From positions 1-21,401 of the forward strand of contig DATLNB010000063.1 of NCBI GenBank assembly GCA_035536995.1: DNA of 21,401 bases. Reading direction: 5' to 3'. Below, piece by piece: positions 9,512 through 21,151 of the stretch. The notes under the pieces are model-generated. The model was not told where the DNA came from. It saw nothing but the letters and a program-made list of their open reading frames with translations, and made no database searches. Source of the stretch: Chthoniobacterales bacterium. Lineage in GTDB: Bacteria > Verrucomicrobiota > Verrucomicrobiia > Chthoniobacterales > UBA10450. A program made the position numbers and the translations under genes. Every line of letters starts with the position of its first letter. Position 1 is the stretch's first letter.

Positions 9512-9958
9512 ATGCATTCGTTTTCCAGTTCCCTCCATCATTGTGTCTTTGCGACAAAACAGCGCGAAGGACTTCTGGTTCCAGCCATTAGCGACCGGCT
9601 CTGGCCGTACCTCGGAGGAATTGCGCGCGATAACAAAATGAAAGGTCTCGCGATCGGTGGCGTGGCTGATCACGTTCATATCCTGCTCAGTCTGCCGGCT
9701 ACAATGTCGATGGCAAAGGCGATGCAGCTGCTGAAGGGCAATTCTTCGAAATGGATTCATGAGACGTTTCCGAAGCTGCGCAGCTTTGCGTGGCAGGAAG
9801 GATACGGCGCCTTTAGTATTGGCGTGTCTGGAATCGAAGAGACGCGGGAATACATTCACCGCCAGGCAGAGCACCATCGGACGAAAACGTTTCGCGAAGA
9901 GGTAATCATGTTTCTTGAGCGTCATGCTATGACCTTTGATGAAGGGATGTTGGAGTAA
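9512..9958 (+). CDS. REP-associated tyrosine transposase (RAYT; IS200/IS605-family Y1 HUH transposase)
   Basis: 148 aa. The HUH motif is HVHILLSLP. The conserved tail is WQEGYGAFSIG...REYIHRQAEHHRTKTFREE, which carries the catalytic Tyr in the YIxxQxxHH context. Palindromic repeats flank the gene. Confidence 0.85.
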   Translation: MHSFSSSLHHCVFATKQREGLLVPAISDRLWPYLGGIARDNKMKGLAIGGVADHVHILLSLPATMSMAKAMQLLKGNSSKWIHETFPKLRSFAWQEGYGAFSIGVSGIEETREYIHRQAEHHRTKTFREEVIMFLERHAMTFDEGMLE

Positions 9959-10199: not shown

Positions 10200-10257
10200 C
10201 CCTCCGAATTCTGTCGCAGTAGCGCTTTTGCAATCGCTGCCGGCTGGCCAGGCGCCC

Positions 10258-10773
10258 ATGGACCTTAATTCACTTGCCCAAATAGCCCAGGTATTGAGCG
10301 GTATTGCGGTCGTCGTGGCGATCGTGTTCGGGCTTGTCCAGGCGCGCCAGTTCAAACAGCAACGGCGCGATGCGGCGGACGTAGAGCTGATGCGCTCAAT
10401 GCAGGATCGGGAATTTACTCGCTCGTTTCGGCTCATTTATTCGATCCAGGACAATTTGAGCGCATCGGGTTTGCGGGCTCTTGGTCCGGAGTACGAGGAG
10501 GCGGCCATCGCCCTCGGGGCGCGATTCGAGTCGATGGGGATGTTGGTCTTTCGCGGTAGTATTCCGCTCGACCTCGTCGAGAAAATCGTCGGTGGTGTGA
10601 TCGTGGTGTTGTGGCGAAAGTTAAAGCTGTTTGTAATCGAATATCGGGCGGAGCAGAAACACGAGCTCCTTTTCGAATGGTTTCAGTGGCTGGCCGAGCG
10701 TATCGAGGAGCGCGGTCGAACAGCGGAGGCTCCGGCCTACAAGCAACACTCGAAATGGACGCCGAAGCGATAA
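10258..10773 (+). CDS. Hypothetical single-pass membrane protein (possibly DUF4760-like)
   Basis: Track ORF 10228..10773 starts at a TTG. ATG 10258 gives MDLNSLAQIAQVLSGIAVVVAIVFGLVQARQFKQQRR, an N-terminal TM helix followed by a positive patch and then a soluble helical domain. The DUF assignment is from memory and weak. Confidence 0.6.
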   Translation: MDLNSLAQIAQVLSGIAVVVAIVFGLVQARQFKQQRRDAADVELMRSMQDREFTRSFRLIYSIQDNLSASGLRALGPEYEEAAIALGARFESMGMLVFRGSIPLDLVEKIVGGVIVVLWRKLKLFVIEYRAEQKHELLFEWFQWLAERIEERGRTAEAPAYKQHSKWTPKR

Positions 10774-10787
10774 CCTAACGAGAGGCT

Positions 10788-11627
10788 GTGGCGAACGACC
10801 CTGGCATCCTGGGAGAAGAAGCTCAGCGCCATTACCGCGATGGGATCGAGCTGTCGCGCCTGCAACGCGGCAGCGGGTCCCTGGAGTTTGCCAGGACCAG
10901 GGAGCTATTAACCCGCCATTTGCCTCAGCCGCCCGCTGTTGTTCTCGACATCGGCGGTGGACCTGGAGCGTACGCCTGCTGGCTCGCGGAGCTCGGCTAC
11001 ACTGTTCATCTGATCGATCCGGTCCCGCTCCATGTTGAGCAGGCGTCCGAGGCGTCGCGGCAACTGGCCCGCCCGGTGGCGAGCGTGGCAGTTGGCGACG
11101 CTAGAGACCTCCCCTACGGAGACAGCAGCGCTGACGCGGTCCTGCTCCTCGGTCCTCTTTATCATCTGGTTGAGCGAGACGATCGCCTCAAGGCCCTCCG
11201 GGAAGCATTTCGTGTCCTGCGTCCGAATGGACAAGTCTTTGCGGTTGGGATTTCGAGGTTTGCTTCGACGCTGGACGGCCTGAAGTCAGGTTATGTCGAC
11301 GACCCGGAGTTTGTCCGGATCTACGAACAAGACCTCCTCAACGGACAGCATCGCAATCCGACAAATCATCCCCATTATTTCACGACCGCGTTCTTCCATC
11401 ATCCCGCCGAGCTGAAAGAAGAATTGGTTGCCTCCGGTTTTGCGCACCACGGCACGTTCGGCATCGAAGGGCCGGCCTGGATGCTTCAGGATTTTTCCGA
11501 ACGCTGGGACTCGCCGCGACGGGAAAGGTTGCTGGCCATTGCACGGGCCCTCGAACAGGAGCCGACTTTGCTTGGGGTGAGCGCGCACCTTCTAGCCGTC
11601 GGGGCCAAACGGCCAATCACCTCGTAA
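10788..11627 (+). CDS. Class I SAM-dependent methyltransferase (substrate unknown)
   Basis: Motif I is VVLDIGGGPGAYACWLAELGYTVHLIDP. The acidic loop is GDARDLPY. The post-II/III segment is AVLLLGPLYHL...VLRPNGQVFAV. The start is a GTG, 14 nt after the preceding gene. Confidence 0.8.
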   Translation: MANDPGILGEEAQRHYRDGIELSRLQRGSGSLEFARTRELLTRHLPQPPAVVLDIGGGPGAYACWLAELGYTVHLIDPVPLHVEQASEASRQLARPVASVAVGDARDLPYGDSSADAVLLLGPLYHLVERDDRLKALREAFRVLRPNGQVFAVGISRFASTLDGLKSGYVDDPEFVRIYEQDLLNGQHRNPTNHPHYFTTAFFHHPAELKEELVASGFAHHGTFGIEGPAWMLQDFSERWDSPRRERLLAIARALEQEPTLLGVSAHLLAVGAKRPITS

Positions 11628-11631
11628 GCGG

Positions 11632-12363
11632 ATGCCCGAGTATATCGCCTGGCTCGCGCTTGCGGTTCTGGTTGTCGCATTCCTCTATTCGAGCGTCGGA
11701 CACGCCGGGGCGTCCGGTTACATCGCGGTGATGACCCTGTTTGGTCTCGCGCCCGCTGCCGTCAAACCGGCCGCGCTGGTCCTGAATATTTTCGTCGCAT
11801 CAATTGGGACGTGGCAGTTCTGGCGGGCGGGGCATTTCTCATGGCGCCTGTTCTGGCCCTTCGCAGTCCTGGCAATGCCGATGGCTTTCGTGGGCGGCTA
11901 CACGAATCTCCCCACGAACACTTTCAAGGTGCTGGTTGGAATTGTCCTGCTGGTCTCCGCGGCGCTCTTTATCGTTCGCCCCTCGAATGACACAGTCGCC
12001 CGCGATCCCAATCGTTTACTCGCCATCATTACTGGCGGCGCGCTTGGGTTGCTGGCCGGATTAACCGGCACCGGCGGTGGTATTTTTCTCACCCCGCTTC
12101 TCCTCTTGATGCGCCGGGCGAAAACCAAGGCGGTCGCGGCCGCGTCCGCGCTTTTCATTCTGGTAAATTCCGTCTCCGGTTTATTGGGAAACCTGAGCAG
12201 CACGAAGAACCTTCCTTCGTTCTCGTTTATCCTCCTCGGCGCAGCGGTGGCCGGAGGCGCCGCCGGTTCCTACTTCGGAAGCCAGCGGTTCAATCACATC
12301 GTGATCAAGCGGCTGCTCGCGGTTGTGTTAACGATCGCCGGATTAAAACTGATTTTGGCCTGA
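11632..12363 (+). CDS. TauE/SafE-family (DUF81) anion permease
   Basis: 243 aa with about 7-8 hydrophobic helices. The sequence is Gly-rich and internally duplicated (SSVGHAGASGYIAVM / LTGTGGGIFLTPLLL), which is typical of the TauE/SafE family. It starts 4 nt after the methyltransferase stop. Confidence 0.75.
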   Translation: MPEYIAWLALAVLVVAFLYSSVGHAGASGYIAVMTLFGLAPAAVKPAALVLNIFVASIGTWQFWRAGHFSWRLFWPFAVLAMPMAFVGGYTNLPTNTFKVLVGIVLLVSAALFIVRPSNDTVARDPNRLLAIITGGALGLLAGLTGTGGGIFLTPLLLLMRRAKTKAVAAASALFILVNSVSGLLGNLSSTKNLPSFSFILLGAAVAGGAAGSYFGSQRFNHIVIKRLLAVVLTIAGLKLILA

Positions 12364-12461
12364 CCAGATCCCGGGACGGGACGCAGACCGAAGGGCCAAC
12401 AACCGTCGATGAAAAGGCTTGTTGGGCGCAGGCGGCGTTTCGTATCCAGAGACGCGGCCTT

Positions 12462-13937
12462 ATGCTTCATAAATCGCGTTCTCGAAACTGTTGCGGTTAC
12501 GTCGGAGCGGTTCTGCTCGCGGCCTGGCCAATCCAACCGGCCGCTGCGCAGGCGACTTCGGACTCAGAGCGCCTGGAAAAATTGGAGCGCGCCGTCGAAC
12601 TACTCCAGAAACGGAATGCGGAGCTGGAACGGGAAGTCCAGAGCCTGAAGAATCAGAAGTCTGCGCCATCCACGGTTTCCGTACCGGCCCCTCGACCGCT
12701 CAGAGAAGAGAAACGTTCCCACTTCGTCCCGGACTCGAAATCGTATGTCGAGAGGACGGAACTAAAGGAAGAGAAGAAGCCCCTTTTTGTGATCGCGGGC
12801 GCTTCGGAAATCAAGCTGACGCTCGGTGGTTTGCTCCAGGTCCAATACGAAGGCGGGGATGTTTTCGCTTTTGAAGGCCGATTTGGGTCGGGCGCAATTG
12901 ACGACCGTTTCCGCGTCCGGCGCGCCCGAATCAACGTCACGGGCGACTTCGCCGAGCAATTCGATTTCAAGCTCGAGGGTGAATTTGCACAGAGCGACGT
13001 GGCGCTCACCGTCCGCGACGCGACGGGCCGGACGCTGGCTTCGAATTCCAGCCGGACTGCGTTTGGCGCTCTCGATCTCTTTGCCAACTGGCACCAGTTT
13101 CCCGAATTCCAAGTCAAGGTGGGCCAATACAAAGCGCCGTTCGGGCTGGAGCAGATCAGCGCCGATCCCAAATTGTTCACCGCTGAGCGGAGCCAGGTCA
13201 CGAGCGCTCTTACGCCGGAGCGCCAGGTCGGAATTCAGATTTGGGGCAAACCGTTCACTCACGCTTTTCCGGAGCAAAAGGATCTGCTGACTTATTGGGT
13301 CGGGATGTTCAACGGCAACGGCCGCAACGTTACGATCAACGATAACGACGAATACATGTATGCAGGCCGGATCGAGGTTCAGCCGTGGAAGGGCAAAGTC
13401 GCGGACCAGGATCTGTGGGTAAAAATCGGGGCCAACGCGCTGCAGAGCCGCGATGCGAGTGGGACGCTCCTGTCCCCCGCAGGCACCTTGCGGGTCAATG
13501 CCGACGGATCCCTAAGCAGCTTCACCGCGCCCTCGGCTGCGGAACGTGAAGGCTGGGGCGCTGATGCGGCTTTTCACTGGGGGCCGTTCGATCTAATCGG
13601 CGAATATCTGAGCGAGAACTACGATGGCCGGATCGTCAACGGCGTCCTGCCCACGTTCGACGATTTTGGCGCTGAAGGTTATTATGTCCAGGGGAGCTAT
13701 TTTATTATCCCGAAGAAACTTCAGGTGGTGACCAAGTACGAACATTTCAATCCCGGGCAGATCATCGATGACAATCTCGACTCCCTGACCGGCGGCGTGA
13801 ATTACTACATCCACGGCGACGACGTGAAGCTCATGGCGAATTACATCCATACCTGGTCGAAGTTCCGCGAAGCCCGCCCGGCTCTCGGCGCGTCCGATTT
13901 CGACGAATTTATTCTGCGACTCCAGATCGTTTACTAA
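12462..13937 (+). CDS. OprO/OprP-type (phosphate-selective porin O/P family) outer-membrane porin with an N-terminal coiled-coil
   Basis: It has a signal peptide (MLHKSRSRNCCGYVGAVLLAAWPIQPAAAQA) and a coiled-coil (ERLEKLERAVELLQKRNAELEREVQSLKN). A beta-barrel body follows with the family-typical RFRVRRARINVTGDF...FDFKLEGEF and alternating aromatic strands, ending in ...ILRLQIVY. Confidence 0.75.
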   Translation: MLHKSRSRNCCGYVGAVLLAAWPIQPAAAQATSDSERLEKLERAVELLQKRNAELEREVQSLKNQKSAPSTVSVPAPRPLREEKRSHFVPDSKSYVERTELKEEKKPLFVIAGASEIKLTLGGLLQVQYEGGDVFAFEGRFGSGAIDDRFRVRRARINVTGDFAEQFDFKLEGEFAQSDVALTVRDATGRTLASNSSRTAFGALDLFANWHQFPEFQVKVGQYKAPFGLEQISADPKLFTAERSQVTSALTPERQVGIQIWGKPFTHAFPEQKDLLTYWVGMFNGNGRNVTINDNDEYMYAGRIEVQPWKGKVADQDLWVKIGANALQSRDASGTLLSPAGTLRVNADGSLSSFTAPSAAEREGWGADAAFHWGPFDLIGEYLSENYDGRIVNGVLPTFDDFGAEGYYVQGSYFIIPKKLQVVTKYEHFNPGQIIDDNLDSLTGGVNYYIHGDDVKLMANYIHTWSKFREARPALGASDFDEFILRLQIVY

Positions 13938-13964
13938 CCCCAACCACCCGCTGCCCGGACCGAT

Positions 13965-15119
13965 ATGAACACCATCAACCCAGAGTCAGAAGTCCGGAAA
14001 CGTTACGCCGCCGGCGCCCAGGCACAGGAGGCGAAACTTTGTTGTCCGGTCGATTACAACACCGACCTGCTGAAAATCATTCCGCAGGAAGTGATTGATC
14101 GCGATTACGGTTGCGGCGATCCGAGCAAATATTTGCACGAAGGCGAGACGGTCCTCGACCTGGGAAGCGGGACAGGAAAAATCTGTTTCATCGCCGCCCA
14201 GGTTGTCGGCGCGAGCGGCAAAGTGATTGGGGTCGATATGACCGACGAGATGCTCGAGGTCGCGCGCCGGAACGCGCCAATCGTGGCTGAGCGGATCGGA
14301 TACGCTAACGTGGAATTCCGGAAAGGCCGGATCCAGGACCTGGCCCTGAGTATCGATCTGCTCGACGCCGAGCTGAAACGGCGGCCGATCAACGATGCCG
14401 CGTCATTCCTTGCCGCGGACGACCTTGCCCGGGAACTTCGGGTCAAGAGTCCGCTCATCGCGAACGACTCGGTGGACGTGGTCGTTTCCAACTGCGTCCT
14501 GAATCTCGTGGAGCCGCAGGCTAAACGGCAGCTGTTCGAGGAAATCTTTCGAGTCCTGAAGATCGGGGGACGGGCTGTCATCTCCGATATCGTGAGTGAC
14601 GAAGCGGTTCCCGAACATCTCCAGAACGATCCGGAGTTGTGGAGCGGCTGCATTTCAGGTGCGCTAACCGAAGAAGGTTTCGTCACTGCTTTCACCAACG
14701 CCGGTTTCTACGGCGTCCAGATTTTGAAGCGGGACGAACAGCCTTGGCAGACTGTGGAAGGAATCGAGTTTCGATCCGTTACGATCGAAGCCTTCAAAGG
14801 AAAACAGGGCCCGTGTGTCGAGCGCAACCAGGCCGTCATTTACAAGGGACCGTTCAAGGAAGTACTCGATGACGACAATCACCGGATGGAACGGGGACGG
14901 CGATACGCAGTCTGTGATAAGACTTACAACATCTATCGCAAGGCGCCCTACGCCGGCTCTTTTGAGTTGGTCGATCCGTTAAGACCTGTCCCGGCCGAAG
15001 AGGCTCGGCCTTTTGATTGCTCCCGCACCGCGTTGCGCCATCCGAAAGAAACAAAGGGACTGGACTACGACGTCACCACCGAAGCATCGCAATGCTATGA
15101 CGGCGGGAATTGTTGTTAG
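13965..15119 (+). CDS. arsM: Arsenite S-adenosylmethionine methyltransferase homologue, with an internal insertion and a Cys-rich C-terminal extension
   Basis: It is collinear with known ArsM sequences: VRKRYA, CC (C26/C27), YGCGDP (C50), GETVLDLGSGTG, GVDMTDEMLEVARRN, NVEFRKGRI, SVDVVVSNCVLNL (C177), FRVLKIGGRAVISDIV and LWSGCISGAL (C229). It has an extra ~40-aa insert (residues ~127-167) and a ~110-aa tail ending QCYDGGNCC. Confidence 0.8.
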   Translation: MNTINPESEVRKRYAAGAQAQEAKLCCPVDYNTDLLKIIPQEVIDRDYGCGDPSKYLHEGETVLDLGSGTGKICFIAAQVVGASGKVIGVDMTDEMLEVARRNAPIVAERIGYANVEFRKGRIQDLALSIDLLDAELKRRPINDAASFLAADDLARELRVKSPLIANDSVDVVVSNCVLNLVEPQAKRQLFEEIFRVLKIGGRAVISDIVSDEAVPEHLQNDPELWSGCISGALTEEGFVTAFTNAGFYGVQILKRDEQPWQTVEGIEFRSVTIEAFKGKQGPCVERNQAVIYKGPFKEVLDDDNHRMERGRRYAVCDKTYNIYRKAPYAGSFELVDPLRPVPAEEARPFDCSRTALRHPKETKGLDYDVTTEASQCYDGGNCC

Positions 15120-15844
15120 GCCGGCTCGTTCGCCCCGTAGTACCAGCGGTGGAGAGTGATCGGCGAAACGCCGGCCTTGAAGAAGAGGAGAAAGAGGCCG
15201 TTTTGGATGCTCGTCCGCCACGCCCCCTTGCGTTGATGATGCCGCGCCGACGAGCGAACCGGCGGATCAAGCAGCGCGATTTTCCCGGCCCGGCGCAACC
15301 TTTTTGAAAACTCGACGTCTTCCATCAGTGGGATCGGGGCGAACCCCCTCAGCTGCATAAACACTTCGCGCCGGACGAAGATGGTCTGGTCGCCGAAGAG
15401 AGTTCCACCGTGGTGCCCACGCCAGCGCGCGACCCTCTCCAGCCATCTCAAGCGCGGATGGCGGTCATCGAATTTGCGATGAAAGGCGCCTCCTACTACG
15501 GCGGTGTCCGACAACGCAGTTTCGATGGCCTGCAAATGTAATTCACTGAATTCAGTATCGGCGTGCTGGAAGATGAGGACGTCGCCGGCAGCGAGTGAAG
15601 CGCCGAGGTTCATTTGTTCGCCGCGGTTGGGGCGCGGCACGCAGACGATGCGCACCTTTGTGGAAGCGGGGCCGTTTATGAAGTCGTTGGGACGGCACGG
15701 CGGCCGTCCCTCCACCGGAACGTCCACGACGATGATTTCTACGCGGCCCGAAAGCGTGGAGAGCCTGGGGAGCAGCGTGGAAAGATTCTCGGCGTCGCGC
15801 CACGCCGGAATCACGAAGCTGACAGCCGGGCTTTCCGCGCTCAC
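15116..15844 (-). CDS. Family-2 glycosyltransferase-like protein of the radical-SAM/selenodomain-associated (TIGR04283-like, 'arsenosugar biosynthesis glycosyltransferase') type
   Basis: Signatures are VSFVIPAWRDAENLSTLLPRL..VEIIVVD, LIFQHADTEF, GGAFHRKF and FGDQTIFVRREVFMQLRGFAPIPLMEDVEFSKRLRRAGKIALLDPPVRSSARHHQRKGAWRT. I place the start at GTG 15844, which overlaps the upstream stop (GTGA). The track ORF extends to 15994 inside the upstream gene. Confidence 0.7.
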   Translation of the reverse strand: MSAESPAVSFVIPAWRDAENLSTLLPRLSTLSGRVEIIVVDVPVEGRPPCRPNDFINGPASTKVRIVCVPRPNRGEQMNLGASLAAGDVLIFQHADTEFSELHLQAIETALSDTAVVGGAFHRKFDDRHPRLRWLERVARWRGHHGGTLFGDQTIFVRREVFMQLRGFAPIPLMEDVEFSKRLRRAGKIALLDPPVRSSARHHQRKGAWRTSIQNGLFLLFFKAGVSPITLHRWYYGANEPA

Positions 15845-17274
15845 TCGAGCGGGCTGGCGGGCTGCGGTTGTTTTCTGAGCTCCGGGTCCTGGAGCCGCTC
15901 GCTGTACACGTCGCTCCAGGTTTGCTGATTCATCGCGCACATCGGCACGGCTTCCCACTCTCCGTTGCGTTTTACTGCGCCTTTGAACACGCACGAATCC
16001 AGCCGCGCCCGGATAACCGGATCCGTCGTCGCGCTGGCGACCTTTTCCGAGCCCATGAAGTTATGCATCCCAACACCGAGCGTGTGGACCTTGCCCCGCA
16101 ACAACGACTGAAAAATTTCTCGCGGCGCGTTCCGTGAACGGAGATACCGGATCATCCTGGTAGCGACCCGCGCCAACAGAACAGGGTTCTTGAAGAGCAC
16201 CCCGGCGAGACGATAGGGCGGCGTCCCGGCGTCGTCGTTGACCAGGGAAAGGCCGCCAATCTCGCGGAGGACTTCGCCTAACAGGTCGTCGAACTCCGGA
16301 TCGTCGGGCAGGAGCGGGAAATATTTCCCGGACGGTCGCGCGATCAGGAGGGAGGCCCAGCTGTTGCAATCCGGGTGACCAAAAATGGAGACGTCGCGTC
16401 GGAGCGGGAGGCCCACGCCTTCGCAGATCTTTTCCCAGACGTCCGCCGAGGTAATCGGGTTTTGCGAAAAAAGGGTCCGGCCGGTGTCCGCTTCCGGTTG
16501 GAAGCTGAGCATGCGCCAGATATAACTGCGTTGCGGATCGGCCAAATACCAGCGGATCACTTCCGGGACGTCGGCGAGATTACGGCGCGTCACCGTGAAG
16601 CTGAGGGCGTATTCGAGGATGAACCCCGTCTTCGCTCGAATTCCGAGCGCCAGGTCGGTAAAAGCTTGTCGGACGGGATGCAGGTCCGCTTCGCATTTGA
16701 TCCGGCCGATCGGATATCCGTGCCGGCCGGCCTGCGTCATGTCCACGTGGACCGAGATCTGGCGAAGCCCCCCTTCCACCACGAGGCGTTCCAAAAATTC
16801 CGGATGCTCGATCAGGGTCTGGCCATGCGTCATTAGCATCGGGATCGAACCAACCGAGTACGCATAACGGACGATCTCGATGAGCTCATCGGCGCGGCCC
16901 GATCTCCAATAGGCGTCGGCAACATCCCCACCCGTGATTTGAAGCCCACCCCCCGGACCTTGGAACCGCCGGTTCGCATCGATCTGTTCCCGGACCTGCG
17001 CCAGCGAAGGGATCGGAATCGAGTTGGCGTTTTTCGGGAGGTAACAATGGGTGCAGTGAAACGAGCAATAGCTTGCGCCGAGAGTGAAGCCGCAGTGGGT
17101 CAGGTGGCGCCCGGAGATCTGGTTGTTGGTTTGAAGCTCTGGCGGGAGCGAGTCCCACCGCTCCCTGAGCACCCGGGCCTTTTCCTCTACAATCGGCTGC
17201 CGAAAGGCCTGCCAGCGCTGCCGCCACCGGGACGGCCGCGACGTTTCGGTTTGAGGATGCGCGAGCGAGACCAT
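15841..17274 (-). CDS. Radical SAM enzyme, uncharacterised 477-aa family
   Basis: CSFHCTHC (CX3CX2C; residues 70-77, nt 17044-17067) is followed by a GGE-like motif, LQITGGDV. I recognise no B12-binding domain and no SPASM/twitch Cys cluster. It starts 4 nt after the DUF547 stop and overlaps the GT start by 4 nt. Confidence 0.75.
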   Translation of the reverse strand: MVSLAHPQTETSRPSRWRQRWQAFRQPIVEEKARVLRERWDSLPPELQTNNQISGRHLTHCGFTLGASYCSFHCTHCYLPKNANSIPIPSLAQVREQIDANRRFQGPGGGLQITGGDVADAYWRSGRADELIEIVRYAYSVGSIPMLMTHGQTLIEHPEFLERLVVEGGLRQISVHVDMTQAGRHGYPIGRIKCEADLHPVRQAFTDLALGIRAKTGFILEYALSFTVTRRNLADVPEVIRWYLADPQRSYIWRMLSFQPEADTGRTLFSQNPITSADVWEKICEGVGLPLRRDVSIFGHPDCNSWASLLIARPSGKYFPLLPDDPEFDDLLGEVLREIGGLSLVNDDAGTPPYRLAGVLFKNPVLLARVATRMIRYLRSRNAPREIFQSLLRGKVHTLGVGMHNFMGSEKVASATTDPVIRARLDSCVFKGAVKRNGEWEAVPMCAMNQQTWSDVYSERLQDPELRKQPQPASPLE

Positions 17275-17278
17275 TTCT

Positions 17279-18016
17279 CTATTTAACTTCGTTCAACGCC
17301 CAATCGTAATTTTGGTAACTGATTTTCACGTCAGCGGGAAGCGGCTTCGAACGCCGCTTGTTGATGAACGCCACCGGCCCACCGTCTTTGAAGTCATCCT
17401 TGTACCAATCAAAAATCTTGGAAAGCTCGGCCGTCTTCGCCCCCTCCTGCCAGGCCACGCCTCTGGGGCTGTTCACGAAGCTGCGGGAAAGGCGCTCCAG
17501 TTGTGAATCGAGGTTCCCGCCCCGATAAGCTTCCGAGCTGAGAGGGGGGCAGCTCTGGCTCGCGCAATTAAGGGCAAAATGAATCCGAGGTTCGGAGAAC
17601 TTCGAACGGATCGTTTCCTTCTCGAGCGCGTTGAAGCTCGTCTGTTCGCCCGCCACCTTGATTCGTTTGCTGGTGAAGAAAGTAAAGAGCGCGTCCTTCA
17701 CGCTTTTGGTCGGATATTTTTCGAGCGCTTCGTGCAGGATCCACGCGTTGTAAGCGTTGATGTAGAAGGCAAGCTGGTCGTTCCGGCTCATCGCACCCAC
17801 GTTCGCCGAACCGATTCCATCCACGACCGTCTGCAAATCTTTCATGTCCCCTGCGTTACTTTTCCACGCCGCGTATTTTACTCCCCCGTTGCTGACATAT
17901 TTTTTCAGGAGCCGATCGTAGGTATCGGTCCAATTATCAGCCGCGTCGATTCGGCTGGCTGCGATCGTCAGGCCGACTAAAACAAGGAGGAACAATGAGC
18001 CGGATCGAGTGCGCAT
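17279..18016 (-). CDS. Secreted DUF547-family protein
   Basis: DUF547 signatures are LAFYINAYNAWILHEALEKYPTKSVKD and EPRIHFALNCASQSCPPL, with IFDWYKDDF near the C-terminus. The start is placed at ATG 18016 (MRTRSGSLFLLVLVGLTIAASRIDAADNW, a signal peptide). The track ORF extends to 18115 with an Arg-rich leader. Confidence 0.75.
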   Translation of the reverse strand: MRTRSGSLFLLVLVGLTIAASRIDAADNWTDTYDRLLKKYVSNGGVKYAAWKSNAGDMKDLQTVVDGIGSANVGAMSRNDQLAFYINAYNAWILHEALEKYPTKSVKDALFTFFTSKRIKVAGEQTSFNALEKETIRSKFSEPRIHFALNCASQSCPPLSSEAYRGGNLDSQLERLSRSFVNSPRGVAWQEGAKTAELSKIFDWYKDDFKDGGPVAFINKRRSKPLPADVKISYQNYDWALNEVK

Positions 18017-18981
18017 GCTTCCAGTTCGCACCCGTTGCCTCCGTCGGGCAAGCCAAAAGCGTATTCTCCCCCCACCGTCTATTCCTTTGCATCGCCGTTC
18101 TTTGGTTTGTGGCAAACACCGCGAACGCCACGACCGTCTGGATCGATACCGATGTTTCCATCGGATCCCCGTTTCGGGAGGTGGACGACGCGTTTGCGCT
18201 GCTCCTCGCCTTTCGCTGTCCGGAGCTCCAAATCGCCGGGGTGAGCACGAGTTACGGGAACGCCCCCCTCCGAATGACGACCGCGTCGGCGCGGAAGCTT
18301 TTCGCGCAGCTCAATCCCGAGACGCCGGTGTTTCCCGGGGCAGCCTCACGGAATGACGTGGCGACCAGAACGGAAGCATCGGAAGCGCTCGCTGCTGCAT
18401 TACGCAGAAAAGGCGCTCTCACCTACGTAGCTCTCGGTCCGCTTACGAATTTGGCTGCGTTTCAAACGCTTCATCCCGCGCTCTCCCGCAAAATCGACCG
18501 AGTCATATTCCTTGGAGGGACAACTCCTGCGACAACCCTTCGTTTCGGATCGCGCCATCCGATTCGCATTCACGACGCGAACGTGGTGAAAGATCCGGAG
18601 GCGGTTGAGCGGATCCTTTGTCGGGGAAAACCGTTCACACTTATCCCGGTCGAAACCGCGGCGAAATTGACGCGGAACGCGGCAGAGCTCGATTCCTTGC
18701 GACGCGACCCAGCTGGCGATTTCGTTCAGGCCCACAGCCGCGTCTGGCTCTGGTTTTGGACAAAATTTGTGGGAACGAGCGGAGCCCCAATCTTCGATGC
18801 AGCGGCGATTCTGGCTGCGGCCGATCCGGCTTCGATGAAGATGGCAAAGCGTTTCGCGGAAATAAACGCAGTCGGAGAGCTTGTCGTGTCGAACGACCCC
18901 CGTGGGCACTCGGTTTCGCTTGCGGTTGAAGTCCGCCAGCGCGGTTATGCCTTGCTCGAGAGAAGGCTTGGCGCTCGCTGA
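17995..18981 (+). CDS. Nucleoside hydrolase (inosine/uridine-preferring IUNH fold) with a probable N-terminal signal/anchor
   Basis: The N-terminal Asp cluster WIDTDVSIGSPFREVDDAFALLLAF..PELQIAGVSTSYGNAPL is a DxDxxxDD motif with a 6-residue insert. The later APIFDAAAILAAADP corresponds to the metal-binding Asp region. A hydrophobic segment, LFLCIAVLWFVANTANA, precedes the domain. ATG 17995 is the only canonical start upstream of that segment. Confidence 0.7.
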   Translation: MSRIECACFQFAPVASVGQAKSVFSPHRLFLCIAVLWFVANTANATTVWIDTDVSIGSPFREVDDAFALLLAFRCPELQIAGVSTSYGNAPLRMTTASARKLFAQLNPETPVFPGAASRNDVATRTEASEALAAALRRKGALTYVALGPLTNLAAFQTLHPALSRKIDRVIFLGGTTPATTLRFGSRHPIRIHDANVVKDPEAVERILCRGKPFTLIPVETAAKLTRNAAELDSLRRDPAGDFVQAHSRVWLWFWTKFVGTSGAPIFDAAAILAAADPASMKMAKRFAEINAVGELVVSNDPRGHSVSLAVEVRQRGYALLERRLGAR

Positions 18982-19052
18982 CGGTTGCTTCAGGTGGGGT
19001 CCCGTAACAGGCTTGCACAGCGTGAAGCGATCTTTCATCATCGGGCGAAAAC

Positions 19053-20174
19053 ATGGCCATCCTTGTCGCTCTGTTCGTCGCGACCTGTTTCCTCGCCTAC
19101 TCCAACGGGGCGAACGATAACTTCAAAGGCGTTGCCTCGCTTTATGGGTGCCGGGCGGCCAATTATCGCACAGCGATTAGTTGGGCCACAATCACCACGT
19201 TTGCCGGCTCCATCGCGTCCATTTTTCTCGCGCAAGCCTTGTTGAAAAGGTTTTCCGGCAAAGGCCTCGTGCCGGATAGCTTTGTCGGCACTGAAACGTT
19301 TCTGCTCAGTGTTGCCATGGGCGCAGCCATCATTGTTATCCTGGCGACGTGGCTAGGATTTCCCATTTCAACAACACACGCGCTGACCGGCGCAATCGTG
19401 GGGTGCGGCCTCGTGTCAGTCGGAACGGGAGTGAACTTCGGGGCCCTGGGCAAAGGCTTTGTCCTGCCTCTCTTGCTCAGTCCGTTGGTCGCCATCCTTC
19501 TCGGCGCGTTGATCTATTTTATCCTCCGCGGCTTCCGGCTGATTTGCGGCGTTAAGAAAGAATTGTGTATTTGCCTCGGCGCGGAAGAACGCGTTGTTGC
19601 TCTGCCGCAGCCGCATTCCATTCTGGCCTTCCAAACCTCGCGCGCCATTACTTTGACCGTTGATCAGGAGGAGAGCTGCCAGGAACGTTATGCCGGATCG
19701 ATGCTTGGCCTGACCGCGCAACAAATCATGGATGGCGCCCATTTTCTGAGTGCGGGAGTAGTGAGTTTCGCGCGCGGCCTCAACGACACGCCGAAGATCG
19801 TCGCCATGCTCCTTCTCCTGAAAGCGATGGACATTCGCTGGGGATTTTTCGCGGTCGCAGTCACGATGGCGGTTGGCGGGTTATTGAACGCGCGCCGGGT
19901 CGCTGAGACAATGAGCCACAAAATCACCGCCATAAATCACGGGCAGGGACTCTCGGCGAATCTGACGACCGGTCTCCTCGTCATCATGGCAAGTGTGTTC
20001 GGGCTCCCGGTCTCGACCACCCAGGTCTCGGTTGGCGCGCTCTTCGGAATGGGCGTGATCACCGGGCAAGCCAACCTGCGGGTGATGGCCAACATTGTCC
20101 TCTCGTGGCTCATTACATTACCGTGTGCCGCGATTATTAGCGGTGCCGCCTACGCCCTCCTGAAAAACCTGTGA
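19053..20174 (+). CDS. PiT (PHO4) family inorganic anion (phosphate/arsenate-type) transporter
   Basis: 373 aa and polytopic. It has the duplicated PiT signature: N-terminal YSNGANDNFKGVASLYG and C-terminal FARGLNDTPKIVAML. The central loop contains CIC and a third Cys. Confidence 0.8.
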   Translation: MAILVALFVATCFLAYSNGANDNFKGVASLYGCRAANYRTAISWATITTFAGSIASIFLAQALLKRFSGKGLVPDSFVGTETFLLSVAMGAAIIVILATWLGFPISTTHALTGAIVGCGLVSVGTGVNFGALGKGFVLPLLLSPLVAILLGALIYFILRGFRLICGVKKELCICLGAEERVVALPQPHSILAFQTSRAITLTVDQEESCQERYAGSMLGLTAQQIMDGAHFLSAGVVSFARGLNDTPKIVAMLLLLKAMDIRWGFFAVAVTMAVGGLLNARRVAETMSHKITAINHGQGLSANLTTGLLVIMASVFGLPVSTTQVSVGALFGMGVITGQANLRVMANIVLSWLITLPCAAIISGAAYALLKNL

Positions 20175-21151
20175 ACCTGACCGCGACCAACAGTTTCGCC
20201 CGCCGCCTGGCCGAGCACTCGTTGCCGCTCAAGCATGCAAAAACGGAAGTGCTCCAGATAAACGTTGGAAAGCTCTGCAATCTGACGTGCGTTCATTGCC
20301 ACGTGAATGCCGGTCCCAGGCGAAAGGAAATCATAAGCCGGGCGACTATTGACCAGCTGATCGACTGGCTGGCCAAGACTGATATCCCCACGGTCGATCT
20401 CACGGGCGGCGCTCCCGAAATGATTCCGGATTTCAAGTATCTGGTGACTCGACTCAAAGCCTTGACGCCGCCGCGCCATATTATTGACCGGTGCAATCTG
20501 ACGATCCTGCTCGAGCCCGGGTTTGAGGATTACGCAGAGTTTTTGGCCGAGCACCGAATCGAGATCATCGCGTCCATGCCCTGTTATTCGGCGGAGAACG
20601 TGAATGCCCAGCGGGGCGAGGGCGTCTTCGACGCGAGCATCAAGGCGCTTCAGCTTTTGAACTCGTTAGGTTACGGGACCCGGCCGGACCTGCCTCTCCA
20701 TCTTGTTTATAACCCGAACGGGGCTTTCCTCCCCAGCCCGCAGGAAGAGCTGGAAGCGGATTACAAGCGCGAGCTACAGGAACATTTCAAAATCACCTTT
20801 AACAGGCTCTACACGATCACAAACCTCCCGATCGCGCGCTTTGCGTCGTATTTGAAGAACAACAACCTGCTCGGTGATTATATGGCCCTGCTAAACGATG
20901 CCTTTAATCCTGCCACGGTGAACGGGTTGATGTGCCGGAACACGATCAATGTCAGCTGGCAGGGCGAGGTGTTCGATTGCGATTTCAACCAGATGCTGAA
21001 GCTGCCGTGGTCCGGCCCCGGCGAGAGCGGGGCGATGCATTTGTGGGATGTGGATCCAGCGCGGGTCGAGGAGCGCGAGGTCTTGATTGGCGACCATTGC
21101 TTCGGATGCACGGCGGGCGCCGGCTCCAGCTGCGGCGGCGCGCTGGTATAG
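20171..21151 (+). CDS. arsS: ArsS-type radical SAM protein with a Cys-rich C-terminal domain (TIGR04167-like 'arsenosugar biosynthesis radical SAM protein'), Cys form
   Basis: The radical SAM motif is CNLTCVHC (CX3CX2C; nt 20276-20299) in the context LQINVGKLCNLTCVHCHVNAGPRRKE. DLTGGAPE is the GGE motif. The C-terminal segment is CRNTINVSWQGEVFDCDFNQML...IGDHCFGCTAGAGSSCGGAL. The GTG start overlaps the PiT stop (ctGTGAac). Confidence 0.8.
   Translation: MNLTATNSFARRLAEHSLPLKHAKTEVLQINVGKLCNLTCVHCHVNAGPRRKEIISRATIDQLIDWLAKTDIPTVDLTGGAPEMIPDFKYLVTRLKALTPPRHIIDRCNLTILLEPGFEDYAEFLAEHRIEIIASMPCYSAENVNAQRGEGVFDASIKALQLLNSLGYGTRPDLPLHLVYNPNGAFLPSPQEELEADYKRELQEHFKITFNRLYTITNLPIARFASYLKNNNLLGDYMALLNDAFNPATVNGLMCRNTINVSWQGEVFDCDFNQMLKLPWSGPGESGAMHLWDVDPARVEEREVLIGDHCFGCTAGAGSSCGGALV

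Follow-up and report, generated by a model that had tools for sequence, protein, structure and literature searches.

The window that we analyzed is the whole 21,401-nt stretch of contig DATLNB010000063.1, which comes from a metagenome-assembled genome (MAG) of a soil member of the Chthoniobacterales (Verrucomicrobiota). At positions 12462-21151 it holds an eight-gene island that we read as an organoarsenical biosynthesis locus, in which an extra block of genes tailors the product of the radical S-adenosylmethionine (SAM) enzyme ArsS; we put the probability of this reading at roughly 0.55. The island being an ArsM/ArsS organoarsenical locus, with DDMAA (5'-deoxy-5'-dimethylarsinoyl-adenosine) as the expected first product, is well supported. 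Moderate support exists for a second radical SAM enzyme (rSAM2) and a TIGR04283-family glycosyltransferase (GT) acting with ArsM and ArsS in Verrucomicrobia, and likewise for the regular pairing of a DUF547 protein with rSAM2 and for the frequent partnership, within this lineage, of a nucleoside hydrolase (NH). The tie to ArsM and ArsS is tightest for rSAM2 and GT, with NH and DUF547 in second place.

The first gene of the island encodes an outer-membrane porin of the phosphate-selective O/P family (12462-13937, plus strand) and is followed after a gap of 27 nt by arsM (13965-15119, plus strand), whose 384-aa product is an As(III) SAM methyltransferase resembling BgArsM of Burkholderia gladioli. 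Convergent with arsM, and overlapping it by 4 nt, lies a minus-strand unit that ends with the GT2-type GT gene (242 aa, 15116-15844); before it come rSAM2 (477 aa, 15841-17274), a radical SAM enzyme of an unnamed family, and the gene for the DUF547 protein (245 aa, 17279-18016), with a predicted signal peptide. DUF547 and rSAM2 are separated by 4 nt (17279 versus 17274), and the stop codon of rSAM2 shares the sequence GTGA (15841-15844) with the GTG start codon of GT. Divergent from DUF547, the gene for NH, of the inosine-uridine nucleoside hydrolase (IU-NH) family (328 aa, 17995-18981, plus strand), precedes by 71 nt the gene for a short PiT (PHO4) protein of an anion transporter family (373 aa, 19053-20174, plus strand), which is translationally coupled through a GTGA overlap to arsS (20171-21151, plus strand), encoding the TIGR04167 radical SAM enzyme. 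Five genes keep arsM and arsS apart, and GT, rSAM2, DUF547 and NH make up a 3.9-kb block between arsM and pit. A preliminary description, made from the sequence alone, had listed these eight genes, their families and the junction spacings of three packed units, and all were confirmed. Its proposed check with family hidden Markov models (HMMs) came out well for TIGR04167, PF04784, PF01156, PF01384 and PF07396 and by a bare pass for TIGR04283, but ArsM stayed below all NCBIfam ArsM cut-offs. The GC content is uniform over the whole window, in which Rfam searches detected no riboswitch or RNA family, and promoter and terminator scans of the window returned hits at chance level only. The rSAM2 protein is 100% identical to a protein encoded on a JGI soil contig and in an NCBI "Chthoniobacterales bacterium" MAG, and close relatives of the island genes recur in many soil metagenome contigs.

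ArsM has the four cysteine positions that the preliminary description had pointed out, namely C26/C27, C50 (YGCG), C177 (SNCVLNL) and C229 (SGCISGA). It aligns to the CmArsM structures at E 3e-35, and C50, C177 and C229 match C72, C174 and C224 of CmArsM. The spacing of all four positions is that of BgArsM, where the cysteines stand at 30, 54, 181 and 233 (PMC8552651), and the best NCBIfam match of the protein is NF040538, the arsinothricin-type model. These features place ArsM, by its sequence, in the BgArsM (arsinothricin-type) subfamily. Relative to CmArsM the protein also carries an insert of about 38 residues (residues ~128-166) between the SAM-binding and As-binding parts, which the arsinothricin-type model covers in one unbroken alignment, and its C-terminal tail (377-384) is rich in cysteine (CYDGGNCC).

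ArsS scores 436.4 bits against TIGR04167 (equivalog cut-off 300), and the model is matched at full length (2-303). The CX3CX2C motif (C36-x3-C40-x2-C43) and the Cys-rich C-terminal domain described earlier are both present, the latter as DUF3641 (PF12345, 185 bits) after the Radical_SAM domain; the protein has cysteine, not selenocysteine. Across 38 diverse relatives C255, C270, C310 and C313 do not vary, and all family-invariant residues are found in the window protein. Its nearest relatives (84-90% identical) are Chthoniobacterales/Verrucomicrobiota proteins, in a family that forms 626 clusters at 50% identity with E<1e-30. ArsS adenosylates dimethylarsenite, DMAs(III), to DDMAA, a reaction known for the Synechocystis enzyme only (PMC13598754; bioRxiv 2026.04.29.721666); the formation of DDMAA from DMAs(III) by ArsS is attributed to Cheng et al. 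2021 in a passage of PMC12159101. In Synechocystis, arsS is co-transcribed with arsM (bioRxiv 2022.09.23.509062). Public databases also hold ArsM-ArsS fusions of 600-700 aa in both domain orders (P0253, P0265, P0288, P0293, P0326 and P0340), as well as long ArsS proteins (P0256, P0283, P0295 and P0269) with 200-430 extra N-terminal residues that have no Pfam match.

We then consider which genes accompany ArsS. The survey covered 80 species-representative genome loci from many phyla, in which six-frame open reading frames (ORFs) were searched with the window proteins; for a family present once or twice per ~4-Mb genome, chance would place a member within ±10 kb in ~0.4-0.8 of the 80 loci. GT was found near ArsS in 29 of the 80 loci, ArsM in 21 and PiT in 10, the last across phyla that include Nitrospira and Acidobacteria. 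GT, ArsM and PiT are real ArsS partners across bacteria, and the arsM/arsS/TIGR04283 core proposed for this island is likewise real and matches the known arsenosugar neighbourhood. Unbiased clustering of the neighbours gave a DedA/MerA-like oxidoreductase set in 16 ArsS loci and an AhpD-like protein in 13, and the window is without both.

GT passes the TIGR04283 cut-off marginally (186.7 bits versus 182), and the name of this family, "arsenosugar biosynthesis glycosyltransferase", rests on gene neighbourhood only; a PDB sequence search with GT found no match. rSAM2 exceeds no NCBIfam or Pfam cut-off and falls just short of Pfam Radical_SAM (27.4 versus 29.5). Its CX3CX2C motif (C70, C74, C77) is invariant among relatives, as are four further cysteines (C61, C303, C428 and C446). 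At E<=1e-3 the protein has 664 relatives, and among the 120 listed all those with a named source are from Verrucomicrobiota. Three proteins fuse a TIGR04283-like GT to rSAM2, and one such fusion gives a weak match to the viperin HMM. The AlphaFold model of rSAM2 (predicted local distance difference test score, pLDDT, 78.5; predicted template modelling score, pTM, 0.84) was compared with the PDB using Foldseek, and the best matches were DesII, BlsE, NifB, EpeE and AbmM, with E values of about 1e-4 to 7e-3. Since several of these act on nucleoside- or nucleotide-linked sugars, the matches would fit an action on the ribose of DDMAA, as a lead only. A PDB profile search returned GDGT-MAS only, at E 0.18. 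Two assignments of rSAM2 were rejected: that of an ArsS paralogue, the hhalign match being limited to the cluster-binding stretch, and that of an ArsL-like enzyme, for which there is no family match.

The neighbours of rSAM2 were surveyed in 80 metagenome loci, 17 of which have at least 3 kb of flank on both sides. DUF547 is the commonest neighbour (41 of the 80 loci, and 11 of the 17 with such flanks), and ArsS, ArsM and GT each occur in five of the 17 well-flanked loci, against about 0.1 expected for ArsS. In Verrucomicrobiota, rSAM2 adjoins arsM or arsS in at least eight different gene orders. Those seen include ArsM> <GT-rSAM2-DUF547 NH> <ArsC-like <PiT ArsS> in L001, where the ArsC-like gene adjoins pit, and <NH DUF547-rSAM2-GT> <ArsS-PiT-MIP-ArsM in L085, which holds a MIP channel (aquaglyceroporin) within the island. 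The order ArsM-PiT-ArsS-rSAM2 is found in L112, L134 and L154, and in L134 it is a compact operon bordered by efflux and succinate dehydrogenase genes. L116 has ArsM-PiT-ArsS-NH-x-GT-rSAM2, L111 and L153 have ArsS-ArsM<>GT-DUF547-rSAM2, and L152 has NH<>GT-DUF547-rSAM2-ArsM..ArsS. In L084, GT-rSAM2-ArsM-ArsS-DUF547 is followed on the opposite strand by genes for a hydrolase, a TIGR03169-type oxidoreductase, TIGR04282/DUF2064, a rhodanese and a major facilitator superfamily (MFS) transporter. The survival of the rSAM2-arsM/arsS linkage through these rearrangements, together with the GT fusions, argues for a shared function. As a separate observation, ArsS companions of the proteobacterial type occur in the verrucomicrobial islands L116 (11387-15079) and L084 (14489-19958), either as a DedA/VTT protein, a MerA-like oxidoreductase, a second and longer DUF547 protein and a second GT, or as TIGR04282/DUF2064, a TIGR03169-type oxidoreductase, a rhodanese, a metallo-beta-lactamase and an MFS transporter.

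The DUF547 protein scores 95 bits against PF04784 (cut-off 27). The listed ORF of 278 aa begins too far upstream; the ATG at 18016 is the likely start and gives a typical signal peptide, the N-terminal segment being hydrophobic and signal-peptide-like on inspection and in the hydropathy profile. With this start the 5' ends of DUF547 and NH overlap by 22 nt (17995-18016), while the JGI annotation starts DUF547 at a TTG at 17995, abutting the start of NH. The motif NCASxSCPPL, a CX4C pair (C151, C156), is invariant. Neither a PDB sequence search nor the structural model (pLDDT 86), for which there was no significant fold match in the PDB, provided a match, and we draw no function from them. NH scores 134 bits against PF01156 (IU_nuc_hydro, cut-off 34.2), and a strong ribosome-binding site (AAGGAGG) stands ahead of its ATG. 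A hydrophobic stretch and then ANA/TT make its N-terminus resemble a signal peptide; such a hydrophobic N-terminus is common to the NH proteins of L001, L004, L085, L105 and L116 and is not found in those of the more distant L129 and L152. On these features, judged by inspection and hydropathy, NH and DUF547 are predicted to act outside the cytoplasm in this lineage, and ArsM, ArsS, rSAM2 and GT are predicted to be cytoplasmic.

In two sister genomes (L002 and L004) porin, arsM, pit and arsS form one tight four-gene operon directly after pdxJ. The two transporters of this operon belong to families of phosphate importers: the porin scores 113 bits against Pfam Porin_O_P (PF07396, cut-off 20.9) and has an N-terminal signal and a coiled coil, and PiT scores 219 bits against PHO4 (PF01384, cut-off 33.7), well under the named equivalogs (PitA 91 versus 800, CysP 76 versus 400). 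Family precedent, the linkage of PiT with ArsS in several phyla and the ArsC-like gene beside pit in L001 suggest that porin and PiT may import arsenate together with phosphate. Of the two-membrane route for anion uptake put forward in the preliminary description, the families of porin and PiT and the recurrence of PiT near ArsS hold good, whereas the porin occurs near ArsS at chance level and the direction of transport comes from family precedent only. Farther along in L002, some 7-9 kb downstream of arsS, lie the chromate resistance genes chrA and chrB (17858-20084).

The same importers would also suit a phosphate-scavenging operon with arsenic damage control, in which co-imported arsenate is turned by the same chemistry into harmless pentavalent organoarsenicals that are then discarded, the extra genes being dispensable and the purpose being detoxification. 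This is a possible, if rather unlikely, explanation. It is in keeping with the occurrence of the four-gene operon without the extra block, with the ArsC-like gene or MIP channel inside the islands of relatives and with the recognition of ArsM methylation as a detoxification route (PMC12159101). However, arsS mutants of Synechocystis are not arsenic-sensitive (bioRxiv 2022.09.23.509062), so that ArsS is no clear resistance determinant; the window is without an arsR-type regulator or efflux pump, and no regulatory evidence of Pho control was obtained. As had been claimed, arsR, arsC, arsB/acr3 and arsA were not found in the 21.4-kb window (Pfam, larger ORFs), nor in the gene calls of syntenic loci; tblastn of the window with the ArsC-like and MIP proteins of a relative gave no match either, and over these 21.4 kb, to which the result applies, the regulator, efflux pump and reductase of a classical ars resistance operon are all absent. 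The step from this absence to deliberate synthesis is nevertheless weak, for a window of 21 kb is uninformative on the genome, relatives carry the ArsC-like or MIP genes and the reactions are in themselves a detoxification. The locus may serve detoxification or another purpose.

Several observations weigh against our reading of the island as an organoarsenical locus with a tailoring block. No member of the lineage has a known product. ArsM lies under every NCBIfam ArsM cut-off (NF040538 339/500, PRK11873 210/263, AsSugarArsM 138/400), and the fold matches of rSAM2 are weak, with TM-scores of about 0.23-0.3 and 10-16% identity. NH has Phe in place of the catalytic His of group I enzymes (IFDAA), with the Asp of the H-D pair retained, and its N-terminal Asp motif is DTD-x10-DD, with a loop 7 residues longer than in the metal-binding motif DxDxxxDD. 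The predicted export of NH would moreover put it apart from the cytoplasmic ArsS, so hydrolysis of the ArsS product by NH in the cytoplasm is not straightforward. The direction of transport by porin and PiT, taken from family precedent, belongs here too. GT, rSAM2, DUF547 and NH are all missing from the otherwise identical sister operons of L002 and L004, which makes the 3.9-kb block accessory. Among the 80 ArsS loci from many phyla, DUF547 (two loci), NH (two, both in close relatives) and porin (one) occur about as often as chance predicts, and rSAM2 is found in none. In the co-occurrence analysis that had been proposed for the eight families, only GT, ArsM and PiT recur near ArsS across bacteria. 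The idea that rSAM2, GT, DUF547 and NH are a full set of candidates for the missing steps survives in part: all four recur by arsM or arsS in Verrucomicrobia, but they are not a general set outside this lineage.

Finally, 17 Chthoniobacterales loci (L088, L093, L095-L098 and L101-L104 among them; for example L096, 7657-11452) carry GT4-DUF547-rSAM2 in the conserved chromosomal order queA .. GT4-DUF547-rSAM2-OpcA-G6PD, and the 10 kb around it are free of ars genes. Locus by locus, rSAM2 and ars genes therefore need not go together. This housekeeping context could mean that the GT-rSAM2-DUF547(-NH) block has nothing to do with arsenic, acts instead on an ordinary sugar or a glycoconjugate of the envelope to modify it, and came to lie in the ars operon by chance. 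The pairing of rSAM2 with an NDP-sugar (nucleoside diphosphate sugar) epimerase/dehydratase in one further locus, the absence of the block from the sister genomes and the predicted export of DUF547 and NH would agree with this. We nevertheless regard it as improbable, as chance does not sit well with a linkage of rSAM2 to arsM/arsS kept through at least eight gene orders, the compact ArsM-PiT-ArsS-rSAM2 and GT-rSAM2-ArsM-ArsS-DUF547 among them, or with a partner GT from TIGR04283, a family associated with ArsS, that in some proteins is fused to rSAM2.

Upstream of the island, a block of about 3 kb separates pdxJ from the porin gene. Since pdxJ and porin are directly adjacent in L002, this block looks like a second variable insertion. 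It has an IS200/IS605-type transposase at its edge (9512-9958, plus strand; 69.6 bits versus a cut-off of 55), followed by DUF4760 (10228-10773), a class I SAM methyltransferase (279 aa, 10788-11627, plus strand; Pfam Methyltransf_11/25) and a TauE/SafE (TSUP) membrane transporter (11632-12363, plus strand; Pfam TauE 121 bits). Neither the 3.9-kb block nor the pdxJ-porin block is flanked by direct or inverted repeats in the manner of a mobile insertion. The methyltransferase has only weak NCBIfam matches, all under cut-off, and is seen only in the window and in L003, being part of the block that is missing from L002; its membership of the island is uncertain, and it is possibly an accessory gene of it. 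TauE adjoins the island also in L001, L004 and L105 and is a conserved upstream neighbour in the lineage. A non-coding motif (GGCTTGT..TTTCGTATCCAGAGACGCG, 12416-12457, plus strand) aligns with the regions upstream of porin in L002 and L105 and ends 4 nt ahead of the porin ATG. It holds TTGTTG, 18 nt and TATCCA and matches no Rfam family; it may be a promoter (TTGTTG-18 nt-TATCCA) or an operator.

The TauE-type anion exporter upstream also bears on the possibility that the substrate of the locus is not arsenic but a different metalloid (Sb, Se or Te). When the ArsS family was first recognised, it was as a family of selenoproteins (PMC13188914), and the porin is partly similar to the selenite/tellurite porin ExtI (80 bits). 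We consider this very improbable: the ExtI score is well under the cut-off of 150, the window ArsS has cysteine and not selenocysteine, ArsM carries the As(III)-binding set of cysteines, an ArsC-like reductase and an aquaglyceroporin accompany the locus in relatives, and the characterised ArsS uses dimethylarsenite (PMC13598754).

In the mechanism that we propose for the organoarsenical locus, the phosphate-type porin and PiT, which share one operon with arsM and arsS in the sister genomes, would carry arsenate with phosphate over both membranes. ArsM would methylate As(III) to dimethylarsenite and ArsS would adenosylate dimethylarsenite to DDMAA, both steps being supported by characterised homologues. 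The block that is specific to the lineage and set between arsM and pit would then tailor the ArsS product. rSAM2 may perform radical chemistry on the ribose of the arsenonucleoside, and GT, which is coupled or fused to rSAM2, may link the sugar moiety to an acceptor. The exported NH might take off adenine outside the cytoplasm, in the periplasm, letting the cell recover it, and the exported DUF547 protein, with its CX4C pair, could handle a thiol-reactive or arsenical intermediate in the same compartment. Export of the nucleoside may fall to TauE. A modified arsenoriboside is the probable end product, which need not be a classical glycerol arsenosugar. We advance only tentatively, and with more doubt than belief, the further proposal that rSAM2 founds a new radical SAM family (in Verrucomicrobiota so far) that acts on the ArsS arsenonucleoside and makes, together with GT, DUF547 and the exported NH, an undescribed class of organoarsenicals.

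Part of this picture is already known, as public annotation gives arsenosugar biosynthesis as the role of ArsS and GT. The new part is the version found in Verrucomicrobia, with a new radical SAM family (rSAM2) that is tied to ArsM/ArsS and fused to GT, and with DUF547, an exported atypical NH, a porin/PiT operon and a BgArsM-type methyltransferase. In a literature search that left most subscription journals outside, we found no genetic assignment of the steps that lead from DDMAA to arsenosugars and arsenolipids, and nothing that ties DUF547 or a nucleoside hydrolase to arsenic. A 2026 preprint goes no further than to remark of the adenine that it "can then be removed" (bioRxiv 2026.04.29.721666). 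The locus offers a compact, expressible candidate set for the enzymes that turn DDMAA into arsenosugars, arsenolipids and possibly arsenobetaine precursors. If rSAM2 acts on the arsenonucleoside with GT, DUF547 and NH, this would be the first genetic assignment of post-DDMAA steps, in the abundant soil Chthoniobacterales. An active pathway could be one source of the organoarsenic species of soils and crops and would extend arsenosugar-type chemistry to non-phototrophic bacteria.

Comparison with known systems shows what the island shares and what it adds. rSAM2 resembles enzymes of the DesII/BlsE/AbmM/viperin type in its radical SAM core with CX3CX2C, its size is near that of DesII, and the best Foldseek matches have E values of 1.5e-4 to 6.5e-3, but TM-scores are only 0.23-0.29, rSAM2 has four extra invariant cysteines, and membership of a sequence family could not be shown. 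With the arsinothricin cluster arsQML of Burkholderia gladioli the island shares the ArsM subfamily (best match NF040538, identical cysteine spacing), and in both a radical SAM enzyme forms a C-As bond from SAM. The island ArsM, at 339 bits, is however below the equivalog cut-off of 500, NCBIfam and Pfam recognised no ArsL or ArsQ among the island proteins, and the radical SAM partner is ArsS, which transfers a 5'-deoxyadenosyl group, whereas that of arsQML is ArsL, which transfers ACP (3-amino-3-carboxypropyl). The ArsS neighbourhood recorded in NCBIfam consists of TIGR04167, the TIGR04283 GT, TIGR04282/DUF2064, an AhpD-like protein, DedA and a MerA-like oxidoreductase. The window has ArsS and the TIGR04283 GT in common with it, and DUF547 accompanies the DedA/oxidoreductase/GT set in L057 and L116; TIGR04282, the AhpD-like protein and the DedA/oxidoreductase genes are lacking in the window. 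In their place it carries rSAM2 and an exported NH, and the non-verrucomicrobial loci examined have neither of the two near ArsS. A further parallel is arsM-arsS of Synechocystis sp. PCC 6803, the pair for the first steps of arsenosugar synthesis, where a four-cysteine ArsM and a TIGR04167 ArsS (CX3CX2C, Cys-rich DUF3641 domain) are likewise encoded at one locus and the expected route is the same, As(III) -> DMAs(III) -> DDMAA. In contrast to Synechocystis, the host of the island is a non-phototrophic soil verrucomicrobium, its ArsM is BgArsM-like and does not follow the cyanobacterial AsSugarArsM model (138 versus 400 bits), and the island, with arsM and arsS five genes apart, adds porin, PiT, GT, rSAM2, DUF547 and NH.

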